Positions 1-3,000 of a stretch of 8,050 nt of DNA are shown piece by piece; positions within the stretch are counted from its first letter, which is position 1; each line of letters opens with the position of its first letter. The DNA comes from Escherichia coli (GTDB lineage Bacteria; Pseudomonadota; Gammaproteobacteria; Enterobacterales; Enterobacteriaceae): assembly GCF_003334785.1 (NCBI RefSeq), contig NZ_QOWV01000036.1. One strand, given 5' to 3'. The position numbers were made by a program.

Positions 1-3000
1 TATACGGAGCGACTAAAAGAAGCCGGATTACTGGCATCAACAGGGAGTACAGGCGACTCGTATGACAACGCGATGGCGGAGAGCATCAATGGTCTTTACA
101 AAGCGGAGGTAATACACCGTAAGAGCTGGAAAAACCGTGCAGGAGTGGAACTGGCCACACTCACGTGGGTGGACTGGTATAACAATCGACGATTGCTGGG
201 AAGACTGGGCCATACTCCTCCGGCAGAAGCTGAAAAAGCTTATTATGCTTCTATCGGAAACAATGATCTGGCAGCCTGAGTTCACAAATAAAACACTCTC
301 CAGGAAACCCGGGGTGGTTCATAGTAGCAAGGTGGCTCTGCCGGAAGTTATGGTAAAGGTATAGGTTGCCCCGGATGGATAACTATCCTTTACAGAGAGA
401 GGAGGTTTCGTCCTTGGTGATGTTTCCTGCTCAGAGCTTTCCGCATGTGGAGTATTTTAATTTTTTCTGATGTCGAGGTAATATGATTATTTACTTTTTC
501 CCATTTCAAATGGAAGAAAATGACACTTTTCTTGATGCCGAAGTTAAGTATCAGAAAATGAAGAATAAAGAATGTTATGGTGTGAAAGCTTCACACAAAA
601 CACCTTTATCCTTTCTTAAACCGAGCGATACGTTATACATCGTTGCTCATGGCAACACATCAGTTATTGGGACAGGTTCAGCAACTGGGCCAACGTTGAA
701 TCCCGTAGCATTAGCCACTCTATTAATGAACAGACGTTTACCAAAGAACTTCATAGATATCAGAGTGTTGTCCTGCGCCTCGGGGATACATTCGAGAACC
801 CCAGCCTTCGCACAACGGCTGAAAGAAATTATGAATGAACATGGGTATCATAGTCTGGTCGTTACCGGATACCTTGGTGAGGTTGATGTATCGAGAGACT
901 GGAGATTAAAAAATGATGATGGTATGGAGTTTTATTCCTTAAGAAAAAAAGGGATTATTCCTGTTAAGGATATATTAAGTGAATCCCAGAGAGCGCTTTG
1001 TGGTTCTGATCTGAAATACGCCCTTTCTGATTTCAAGAAACGATTTTGAATAGGAGTAGTGCACTGACGTCAGAGCCGTTATGAAAGTAAGCGGCTCGCC
1101 AGAACCGTATTGATATTTACTGAGAGCTCAGATCAACTTTCCAGGGCAACAGATCGCGTACCCGGTTTGCCGGCCAGTCCTGGATATGCTCAATGACGTA
1201 ACGCAGCCATTTTTCTGGCCCCTGTCAACGCCAAGATTATTGGCCGTTTTCGTCGCATTAGCTTACTTGGACAGCATGTACTTTATGAAGTGAATGATGA
1301 GGCCAGTCGTGTCAATATCCTGGCGTTGTAGGCCAGCGTCAGAATCCCCGTCATTCTTTGAGTGTCCGGCTTAGTGCTCATCAAGGGCAGCCAGCACAAT
1401 CAGTATCCTTCGCTGCAGCGGCGACTCTGTCACCCTCTGACCAGATGAGTGGCTTTGCAGGACAGGCTGATTTTAAAAACAGATTCATCAAAAGACGTAC
1501 CTCCTGGAGATGTATATAATATTATGAAAATCATATCCGTTACGGGAATTACTGTGGTGAATACAGAAAATGTTCATCTCTTTTCTGATTCATCTGAAAA
1601 GAAAACAGGTAAATTTTATTTAAAAAAACAATCCGGTAATTATAACTGTCCTGTCAGGGGAAGTATTCCTTCATACACGTTAATGCAGGCAACCGACAAT
1701 ATTCCTGATGACATTACTTTTAAAGCATATTACCTTCCCTACAAAAAAAATGATGTTACATCCCTGCCACTGGAAAAAAATTCCGATGTTAATTATTTTT
1801 TTACAGATATACTGGATGGATGTTCAGTTGGAATACATACAGAGGAACTGGTAACCCGCGTATACCATGCCAATGCCTTCAGATATGGTGAGTTTTTATA
1901 CCGGAAAGAGAAGATGAATTGCAGTTTTGCATTACGACGACAGGTAAGTATGCAGAATAAAATGATTAAAAATGCATCAGAGAATAATGCTAAAATTATA
2001 TCACCATGGCACTATGGACATCATGGTGAAAATGCTGTCTTTTATAAAACATTATTTTTCGGATACAGAGAGAATTTCTCCGGAAGCTGGTGTTTTTTGC
2101 GTCAGACATATGATATCCGTAACATGGAAAACTCATGGTTCCGGTAATTATGTTGATGAGGGATAATCTGTGAATGTTTTGAGTGACAAAGAGTACTCCT
2201 GAATGGATGATATATTATATCTGAATGGAAAAAGGGTCAGACTAAGAACGTGTAATATCTACGGCAGCAGGCCAGTAATGGGTTAAGTGATAACAGGTGT
2301 CTGGAAATATAGGGGCAAATCCACCCTCGATATGACTATCCGGTAGATATGTAAAAAGCCTTATTCAAATATAGTCAAATCTATTGATAGAACTCGTTTG
2401 TCAACTGAAAGTAAAAACATTCCATAAAGCTCAGAAATGGATATTGTCACAGAAATAGATATAGACAAACCAAACGCAATCTCTTATACTTTCAAAGCTT
2501 TATAGAATACTACTATGGGAGATTTAAATAGATATTAAACAAGGAGACTATGATTTTAACATGTTAGCAACCCCTTTACTAAATACAACTTTAGTTTATA
2601 TATTTCCTTTAAGTTAAAGGATAGCGGGAATACAATTTCACTTCGTCTCTATTAGTATGAATCGTAATAGATGAGATACAACAACTTAATAAGGTAACAA
2701 TCCCTTGCCGTATAGTAACACTGGACGGGGAGAGTATGCAATGCAAACAGAAAATGGAGGGTAAAAGATCACTGTTATTTTAATCTGAAAGTACAAGGAG
2801 CTATCTCTTTTAAAAGACAATAAATGTTATTTATGTTGTCTTTATTTGTTGTGTGGATATTTTTTGATAAAAGACAGGATTCTATATATGAATAAAGTGT
2901 TCTCTCTTAAGTATAGTTTTTTAGCCAAAGGTTTTATTGCTGTTTCTGAACTTGCCAGTCGCGTTTCTGTTAAAGGAAAACTGAAGAGTGCTTCATCAAT

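Follow-up and report, generated by a model that had tools for sequence, protein, structure and literature searches.

The 740 bases upstream of the plasmid-borne SPATE gene eatA: probably a three-part mosaic rather than a single leader

The serine protease autotransporter (SPATE) genes whose promoters have been described are regulated in several different ways. The promoters of pet, sat and sigA are CRP/Fis-dependent, vat is controlled by H-NS and VatX, and espC is controlled by Ler. H-NS represses vat, and H-NS sites have been predicted upstream of other SPATE genes (PMC6956023). No promoter or transcription start was found in the searchable literature for eatA, whose product EatA is a vaccine candidate.

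The window analysed here is a stretch of 8,050 nucleotides of Escherichia coli plasmid DNA, to which the record NZ_AP022179.1 is identical. The following gene is the reference point for all that follows.

2888-6982, plus strand: eatA, an ETEC serine protease autotransporter (SPATE) gene, from the RefSeq annotation of the identical record.

An earlier note on this DNA had taken the gene for a SPATE gene, and this is borne out both by the RefSeq annotation and by AMRFinderPlus, to whose eatA reference it is 97.87% identical. The same note described the 740 bases in front of it (2148-2887; 32.7% G+C) as lacking any credible gene and as a possible regulatory leader. There is indeed no intact gene in this interval, but it is not one unit, since its first ~176 bp consist of a gene stub and the end of an IS2-family element. 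We consider it probable, though well short of certain, that the 740 bases are a three-part mosaic with no single leader, to which mobile-element traffic would have given rise. The interval is an ordinary patchwork and no new kind of element. Its anatomy, set out below, was observed directly, and so were its distribution, its rates of divergence and the chance levels of its motifs.

The first two parts of the mosaic occupy 2148-2323.

2148-2202, plus strand: spacer of an upstream degraded gene cluster, not of eatA, lying inside an 89% DNA match.
2203-2255, plus strand: 5' stub (about 18 codons, MDDILYLNGKRVRLRTCN) of a small 'putative adhesin' gene, recognised by its match to the start of a CDS in L011.
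2254-2323, plus strand: terminal ~70 bp of an IS2-family (IS3 family) element with the right inverted-repeat end ...GGGGCAAATCCA, recognised by homology.

Window positions 1463-2255 have an 89% DNA match to positions 3001-3793 of L011 (NZ_CP012498.1). There, the counterpart of the 55-bp spacer separates a hypothetical gene from the 'putative adhesin' gene, and the 53-nt stub matches the start of a 158-aa CDS (3741-4217, MDEILYLNGKRVRLRTCN...), with homology ending at 2255. The 'putative adhesin' gene is truncated by the IS fragment, and 2148-2255 as a whole is the leftover of a neighbouring, decaying gene cluster. Positions 2254-2324 are 97.2% identical to the end of a complete IS that lies upstream of eatA in L008. 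Matches to the same end occur in 3733 of 5426 E. coli genomes, where the annotated feature is 'IS3-like element IS2 family transposase', and identity to thousands of E. coli copies is 93-99%. In the window, the IS homology is limited to the ~70 bp at 2254-2323, where transposase ORFs, a left end and a recognisable target-site duplication were looked for and not found. Because the homology is so short and the adhesin-gene stub lies upstream of 2254, this is a remnant or scar and not an element. The scar would mark where a rearrangement brought the eatA cassette and foreign DNA together. The suggestion that the interval is simply decayed sequence is therefore apt for 2148-2323, with its gene stub and IS scar; 2324-2887 is a stretch that travels with eatA. 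The DNA truly belonging to eatA begins at 2324 rather than at 2148.

2324-2887, plus strand: non-coding upstream block linked to eatA by co-occurrence, presumably the eatA promoter and 5' UTR.

PLSDB has this block of 564 bp in 71 plasmids, and 97 of 5426 complete E. coli genomes carry it; it is plasmid-borne and adjoins eatA in every case, and 90 of the 97 genomes retain it whole. Its presence on every eatA plasmid examined means that it must hold the gene's own expression signals. It is normal for eatA to be preceded by a long non-coding region, given that on p948 of H10407 a Tn3-family transposase remnant stops 721 bp 5' of the eatA ATG. Among metagenomes, 11 contigs carry the block; all belong to known lineages, four are identical to the window, and no new truncation was seen in them. 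Homology between eatA and sepA starts exactly at the ATG and the block is missing upstream of sepA, while the upstream DNA of SPATE genes in plasmids and E. coli genomes contains nothing comparable. The idea that the block shares ancestry with the DNA in front of sepA or of other SPATE genes was thus discarded, no homology having been detected. An origin in another species was likewise set aside, as two conserved 24-25-mers of the block had zero exact matches among 100,044 GTDB species representatives. Nor is the block recognisable as decayed coding sequence: its longest stop-free stretches span 36-56 aa, and no NCBIfam family was matched by any of them.

Compared with eight other lineages, the block has diverged by 2.2-3.9%, and the four-fold-degenerate sites of eatA by 2.1-5.0%. 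There is no detectable constraint on the block, which diverges at the synonymous rate. By manual count, the last 152 bp have 9 substitutions (9/152) against 36/409 elsewhere, a difference that, judged without a formal test, looks too small to be significant. The part from 2324 to about 2660 would behave as a neutrally drifting AT-rich spacer. It contains the following repeat.

2419-2508, no strand: 19-nt imperfect inverted repeat (2419-2437 and 2490-2508), complementary at 16 of 19 positions.

It encloses an 18-nt tandem duplication (2432-2449 and 2450-2467), one copy of which is missing from L006 and L007. The inverted repeat was equalled in 2 of 60 shuffles.

The expression signals proposed in the earlier note lie in or close to this distal part, and all of them are where it had placed them.

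2462-2490, plus strand: putative sigma-70-like site TAGACA-17-TATACT, a chance-level match by consensus scan and PWM.
2542-2617, plus strand: AGGAG (2542-2546) with the mini-ORFs 2550-2567 (ATG 2550, 5 codons) and 2561-2617 (ATG 2561, 18 codons), from the sequence.

The sigma-70-like site, which had been called reasonable, has the best PWM score in the interval (10.9 bits) and agrees with the consensus at 10 of 12 positions, but a match at least as good occurs in 18% of dinucleotide shuffles. The consensus scan counted 4 promoter-like sites in the interval, where shuffles gave 5.6 +/- 2.6, and the match at 2462-2490 does not rise above chance. Its -35 hexamer falls within the second copy of the tandem repeat. 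In each of the six lineages that still have the site, neither hexamer has changed; L008, L009 and L010 lack the site. The AGGAG, which had been called strong, fares no better. This motif occurs twice where 0.8 occurrences are expected (probability of two or more, 0.18), and 17.5% of shuffles have an AGGAG followed by an ATG within 3-14 nt. The optimum for Shine-Dalgarno spacing is usually 5-9 nt, and the gaps here, 3 nt to ATG 2550 and 14 nt to ATG 2561, both fall outside it. The predicted products are MILTC from ATG 2550 and MLATPLLNTTLVYIFPLS from ATG 2561. The 18-codon frame is open in all six lineages that retain this part. A 40-nt bin inside it (2567-2606) has nine substitutions, the highest number of any bin, of which six are non-synonymous and three synonymous by manual codon assignment. 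Either the Shine-Dalgarno site or the mini-ORF is lost in L008, L009 and L010, and in L010 the whole of 2542-2617 is gone. A leader peptide would be recognised by purifying selection and a functional Shine-Dalgarno distance, and neither was found for the mini-ORFs at 2550 and 2561. The 2462-2490 site and the AGGAG mini-ORFs are at chance level with no sign of selection, and the mini-ORFs are probably non-functional.

Several plasmids have lost part of the block naturally. An IS2-family end adjoins position 2560 in L008 and position ~2574 in L009, while IS1 adjoins 2663 in L010 and at least three other plasmids. The strains with such IS truncations are ATCC 43886, E2528-C1, TW10690 and 600468. 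The L008, L009 and L010-type plasmids consequently lack the distal part of the block, and eatA is annotated as intact in L008 and L010. A 56-bp deletion (2680-2735) also occurs alongside an eatA annotated as intact; TW10590 has this allele together with a second eatA plasmid that carries the full block. Two counterpoints apply. Outward or read-through transcription from the IS could drive eatA in the truncated plasmids, so an intact eatA there is no proof that the native distal DNA is dispensable, and there may not have been enough time since the insertions for an unexpressed eatA to decay. The IS truncations at ~2560, ~2574 and 2663 and the deletions of 2440-2457 and 2680-2735 form a ready-made series for promoter mapping.

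Judging from these alignments, a working eatA promoter is more likely to lie within the last ~225 bp, because this is the only upstream DNA common to all eatA plasmids, including those truncated by IS1 or IS2-family elements. A secondary promoter may be present further upstream. The following features lie close to the start of the gene.

2812-2843, no strand: AT-rich imperfect palindrome AAAAGACAATAAATGTTATTTATGTTGTCTTT, invariant in 9 of 9 lineages aligned.
2836-2863, plus strand: promoter-like TTGTCT-16-TATTTT, the preferred candidate for the eatA promoter (PWM 7.6).
2860-2865, plus strand: T-run of 5, 6 or 7 T depending on the lineage, from the alignment.
2876-2879, plus strand: Shine-Dalgarno-like AGGA, 8 nt 5' of the eatA ATG, read from the sequence.

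The site of transcription start that we infer is tied to the candidate at 2836-2863, which would give a 5' UTR of ~18 nt if the operative promoter is indeed in the last ~225 bp. This candidate is kept in every lineage, including the truncated ones, and its only variation is at spacer base 2855; its PWM score of 7.6 bits is below the median best score of shuffles. The AGGA would serve as the Shine-Dalgarno sequence for ATG 2888, and in L007 it carries the substitution A2876T. The 3' arm of the palindrome overlaps the proximal -35-like hexamer. The palindrome folds as a hairpin, and the region around it has no excess stability (z = -0.55). Two other candidates in this region were rejected. An extended -10, TGTTATTTT (2773-2781), is disfavoured: L004, L005 and L007 each carry a mutation either in its TG or in the A at -10 position 2. 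An upstream ORF of 23 codons (2824-2895), which overlaps the eatA ATG and might have allowed translational coupling, is frameshifted in L006, where the T-run is one T longer, and in L008 and L009, where it is one T shorter.

At the RNA level, searching the entire window against Rfam with a cut-off of E <= 1 yielded two eukaryotic hits, both at chance level, and nothing else; the sole match in the interval was to a plant miRNA family (E = 0.5), far under the gathering score. Folding showed no excess stability over shuffles for 2790-2900 (z = -0.55), for 2497-2890 (z = +0.53) or for the minus strand of 2327-2887 (z = -0.10). The Shine-Dalgarno sequence had an unpaired probability of 0.27 against 0.17 in shuffled controls and is thus not additionally occluded. 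A fourU-type thermometer was rejected, as shuffled upstream sequence occluded the Shine-Dalgarno site at least as strongly, over 25-42 C and for three assumed 5' ends. The thermo-controlled leader that had been suggested finds no counterpart in these results, which contain neither excess RNA structure nor any sign of a thermometer, and they give no evidence of a riboswitch.

The G+C content of E. coli is about 50%. That of the block is 30.5% and that of eatA 40.7%, so both are AT-rich relative to the host genome, as would be an H-NS-silenced locus. In H10407, the H-NS ChIP-seq signal rises as G+C falls and extends over virulence loci on the plasmids (PMC4287617). Binding of H-NS to the block, and control of eatA by it, is plausible; any such role is one that we infer from base composition only. 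By analogy with other SPATE genes, regulation of eatA by nucleoid proteins would also be plausible (PMC6956023). The high-affinity H-NS motif TCGATAAATT is not enriched, with 10 matches against 12 expected. CRP control of the pet, sat and sigA type was rejected, on evidence that concerns the H10407 allele, which is 97% identical. The reverse complement of the palindrome at 2812-2843, the only CRP site predicted in the block, is a weak one with a score of 7.9 (S1 Table, PMC4287617); one further site, entered under eatA, has a score of 8.59 (PMC4287617). Sites scoring below 10 showed no in-vitro CRP binding, and CRP ChIP-seq in H10407 gave zero plasmid targets (PMC4287617). Control of the Rns/CsvR type was rejected as well, since induction of the CsvR/bile regulon did not extend to eatA (PMC6331568). 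A by-eye look upstream of eatA for AggR/Rns-type sites (WWWWWWWTATC) revealed nothing convincing.

How the block should be read depends on the weight given to these observations. In the model of the earlier note, eatA is transcribed from 2462-2490 and has a ~390-nt AT-rich leader, in which mini-ORFs or nucleoid proteins tune expression. The rank of that site in the interval, its unchanged hexamers, the open 18-codon frame and the retention of the full block in 90 of 97 genomes are all compatible with a real upstream promoter. The model nevertheless appears unlikely, as motifs of this quality arise readily in shuffles, the AGGAG is poorly spaced, the mini-ORF occupies the most variable stretch, the leader has no excess structure, the divergence overall is that of synonymous sites, and plasmids that have lost both promoter and Shine-Dalgarno site keep an intact eatA. 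A more elaborate version, in which the 564-bp block is a long regulatory leader or an ETEC-unique plasmid ncRNA made from 2462-2490, with an operator at 2419-2508 and with read-through into eatA controlled by either the 18-codon ORF or the 2812-2843 hairpin, is very unlikely. The same promoter-like site stands upstream of the invariant hairpin-forming palindrome and a T-rich stretch, an arrangement that might suggest an independent small RNA, running for example from ~2497 to the 2812-2843 hairpin, or one encoded on the minus strand. That hairpin is AT-rich and was not called by the terminator scan, several lineages have lost the segment or carry it interrupted, and the lack of a credible Rfam match, of excess folding on either strand and of any departure from neutral divergence makes a small RNA, also raised in the earlier note, extremely improbable.

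It is tempting to regard the distal block as a dispensable but functional silencing platform, on which H-NS or a different nucleoid protein would assemble to repress an eatA promoter closer to the gene; eatA expression would then respond to temperature or osmolarity. This remains a tentative reading and on balance a doubtful one. Its low G+C, the H-NS signal in H10407 and the example of vat argue for it, whereas TCGATAAATT is not enriched, locus-specific H-NS data for eatA were not found in the literature, and the block shows no constraint beyond the neutral rate, although composition-driven binding would need none. The three-part mosaic with a proximal promoter is the reading that we prefer.

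Set beside known systems, the interval resembles several of them in part. As in fourU and ROSE thermometers, the U-run at 2862-2866 can pair with the AGGA in the minimum-free-energy fold, but this pairing is weak, the Shine-Dalgarno sequence is accessible and the stability of the fold is average (z = -0.55). The pairing is relevant only to a transcript that begins 5' of 2843. A Shine-Dalgarno-like motif and short ORFs 5' of a structural gene recall leader-peptide and uORF attenuators; unlike these, the eatA upstream region has no conserved peptide or alternative hairpins, its AGGAG is poorly spaced, and these elements are lost in variants. The right-end homology at 2254-2323 relates the scar to IS2 of the IS3 family, yet it is a solo inverted-repeat scar, whereas IS2 has a transposase gene (orfA/orfB with a programmed frameshift), a second inverted repeat and a target-site duplication. 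The upstream region of eatA is not homologous in sequence to that of any other SPATE gene, sepA, the closest, included. What it shares with them is its setting, that of AT-rich non-coding DNA in front of a plasmid-borne, horizontally acquired gene flanked by IS debris.

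The 740-bp interval 2148-2887, which an earlier note had described as a long AT-rich leader, possibly regulatory, is made of three unrelated pieces, as sequence comparison shows. Both pWP7-S17-ESBL-04_2 (NZ_AP022179.1), a plasmid of E. coli, and NZ_CP069544.1 contain a stretch identical to the window (subtracting 78003 from a record position gives the window position). The pieces and the gene that follows them are:

2148-2255, piece 1: end of a stretch (window 1463-2255) with an 89% DNA match in NZ_CP012498.1 and similar plasmids
2254-2323, piece 2: matches, at 97.2% identity, the final 71 bp of the complete IS3-family element carried by L008, a different eatA plasmid
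2324-2887, piece 3 (block C): 564 bp, the sole piece belonging to eatA; statistics computed on 2327-2887
From ATG 2888, eatA: long ORF, ETEC serine protease autotransporter; 97.87% identity to the AMRFinderPlus reference, intact in RefSeq

On NZ_CP012498.1-type plasmids, the order is a hypothetical gene (155 aa), a spacer of 55 bp and then a 'putative adhesin' gene (158 aa). Positions 2203-2255 are the first ~18 codons of the latter (MDDILYLNGKRVRLRTCN vs MDEILYLNGKRVRLRTCN), and the homology ends there. The ORF ending at 2147 (1449-2147, 232 codons) is a frameshifted pseudogene in the RefSeq annotation (record 79685-80150). An older PLSDB annotation calls a different CDS in this region (1448-1960). 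On many E. coli plasmids associated with animals and food, homologues of the ORF adjoin a 'putative adhesin' gene. Of 5426 complete E. coli genomes, 3733 have a match to piece 2, under the annotation 'IS3-like element IS2 family transposase'. Its terminus, ...GGGGCAAATCCA, is the IS2 right end; only the tip of an IS2-family element is left. Because four metagenome contigs (L018, L019, L022 and L027) are 100% identical to the window over the entire mosaic, 2188-2917, this particular joining of adhesin stub, IS2 scar and eatA is in circulation and is no single-isolate assembly artefact. Further upstream, a 188-aa hypothetical gene (483-1049, WP_170881605.1) may be part of an ancestral eatA neighbourhood: hypothetical genes of equal length (567 bp; WP_000587875 and WP_000587873) lie on the opposite strand ~2 kb upstream of eatA in the lineages L006, L007 and L028.

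In PLSDB, 71 plasmids carry block C, each of them from E. coli, as do 97 of 5426 complete E. coli genomes, with no chromosomal copies; it directly adjoins eatA in every case and is approximately full-length in 90 of the 97. Eleven metagenome contigs also carry it, four identical to the window mosaic and the others from lineages already sampled. In H10407 p948 and most other lineages, homologous sequence extends ~125 bp further upstream, up to a Tn3-family transposase remnant whose annotated end in p948 lies 721 bp before the eatA start codon. It is thus usual for eatA to be preceded by a long non-coding region, and the window's version of that region has been shortened by the IS2-family event. 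Sensitive blastn found no comparable sequence upstream of other genes on plasmids or in E. coli genomes, and two conserved 24-25-mers of block C had no exact match in 100,044 species, represented by one genome each.

The motifs on which the leader reading was based do exist: a promoter-like TAGACA-17-TATACT at 2462-2490, AGGAG at 2542-2546, and mini-ORFs at ATG 2550 (5 codons, MILTC) and ATG 2561 (18 codons, MLATPLLNTTLVYIFPLS). The interval (G+C 32.7%) also lacks a credible gene, as had been said, its longest ORF being at most 35 codons and its longest stop-free stretch at most 56. The observation is real, yet the motifs are at chance level. A consensus scan gave four promoter-like sites in 2148-2887 vs 5.6 +/- 2.6 in shuffles, no excess, and the top PWM score of the interval, 10.9 bits at 2462-2490, is equalled or beaten in 18% of dinucleotide-preserving shuffles. 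AGGAG occurs twice (2542 and 2796) against 0.8 expected (P(>=2) = 0.18), and an ATG follows AGGAG within 3-14 nt in 17.5% of shuffles. The gaps here, 3 nt to ATG 2550 and 14 nt to ATG 2561, both lie outside the usual Shine-Dalgarno optimum. A secondary upstream promoter at 2462-2490 is conceivable. Its -35 hexamer sits in the second copy of an 18-nt tandem duplication (2432-2449/2450-2467), one copy of which (18 bp, 2440-2457) is absent from two lineages, L006 and L007. The duplication is enclosed by a 19-nt inverted repeat (2419-2508; 16/19 complementary, equalled in 2 of 60 shuffles) with arms that are unchanged wherever present; it may serve as a binding site for a protein or be the scar of a duplication.

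Tests at the RNA and coding level found no signal. Rfam has no credible match in the window, and minimum free energies were indistinguishable from those of shuffles for 2790-2900 (z = -0.55), the putative 394-nt leader (z = +0.53) and the minus strand (z = -0.10). A fourU-like thermometer, in which a U-run pairs with the AGGA Shine-Dalgarno, was rejected, the site being no more occluded than with shuffled upstream sequence. No stop-free stretch of the interval matches an NCBIfam family, and in three lineages a T-run of differing length shifts the frame of a 23-codon ORF overlapping the eatA ATG (2824-2895).

When the window was aligned with eight other lineages, upstream divergence was 2.2-3.9%. 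Over the first 2.5 kb of eatA, four-fold-degenerate sites diverge by 2.1-5.0%, and no purifying selection over block C as a whole was detectable across these nine lineages. The densest 40-nt bin (2567-2606), with nine of the 45 variable positions, falls within the 18-codon mini-ORF. With codons assigned by hand, six of the nine changes are non-synonymous (T4I, T4P, P5S, L7P, F15L and F15S) and three synonymous, a split that matches the neutral expectation, although the frame remains open. The last 152 bp have 9/152 substitutions vs 36/409 elsewhere (hand count), a difference apparently too small for significance.

Other eatA plasmids provide a natural deletion series:

L008 (p600468_158): IS2-family element adjoins 2560, splitting the mini-ORF from its AGGAG
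L009 (pTW10690_129.5k): IS2-family end adjoins ~2574, within the mini-ORF
L010 (ATCC 43886), plus three or more other plasmids: IS1 adjoins 2663

The distal part of block C was not found elsewhere on these plasmids, and the L008 and L010 annotations show a full-length eatA. L007-type plasmids lack 2680-2735 (56 bp), with eatA annotated intact. Owing to these truncations and deletions, all eatA copies share upstream DNA only at 2663-2679 and 2736-2887. This series has three caveats: the IS elements themselves could drive eatA transcription in the truncated plasmids, an unexpressed eatA may not yet have had time to decay since the events, and strain TW10590 has deleted and full-length alleles on two plasmids. 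The 56-bp-deletion allele may be a decaying second copy. Its lineage (L007/L028) also has TGGA for the Shine-Dalgarno AGGA (A2876T), and the AMRFinderPlus eatA match in L007 is 4044 bp, not 4092 bp. IS2-family right ends meet block C at three positions (2323/2324; 2560 in L008, IS ~2828-270; ~2574 in L009), all in one orientation, with the transposase reading toward eatA. Given shared SNPs, L008 and L009 may derive from a single insertion, with an adjacent deletion of 14 bp afterwards. Either a hotspot for insertion or selection for eatA expression driven by the IS might explain the recurrence, which at only two to three events is not significant.

The shared DNA suggests that the eatA promoter probably lies within the last ~225 bp. 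Block C is most likely the native 5' region of eatA, with AGGA 2876-2879 as the ribosome-binding site for ATG 2888. The candidate promoter, TTGTCT-16-TATTTT (2836-2863), is present and unchanged in all lineages but for spacer base 2855; its -35 hexamer overlaps an invariant AT-rich palindrome (2812-2843), 45-75 nt 5' of the ATG. A T-run (2860-2865) varies from 5 to 7 T by lineage, altering the spacing between the -10-like hexamer and the Shine-Dalgarno site. An extended -10 alternative at 2773-2781 is disfavoured, its key bases being mutated in three lineages.

No mapped eatA promoter or transcription start was found in the searchable literature. CRP ChIP-seq in H10407 detected no plasmid targets; the palindrome at 2820-2843 is listed in S1 Table as a weak predicted CRP site (score 7.9), and in vitro binding was absent for sites scoring <10 (PMC4287617). 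H-NS binding in the same strain was inversely correlated with G+C (PMC4287617). The 30.5% G+C of block C points to possible H-NS control of eatA; the high-affinity H-NS motif is not enriched in the window. In strain E2265, induction of the CsvR/bile regulon did not extend to eatA (PMC6331568).

The closest relative of eatA is sepA. Comparison with Shigella flexneri pCP301 and with an E. albertii plasmid shows that DNA homology between the two genes sets in precisely at the start codon (window 2885-2888 vs 2342 and 2341 in the sepA records L012 and L013). Their upstream regions are wholly unrelated, so the two genes are presumably regulated independently. What had been taken for a leader is thus a mosaic in which IS-generated debris adjoins an ordinary promoter region, as yet uncharacterised, that belongs to a virulence gene gained by horizontal transfer, an arrangement of a known kind.
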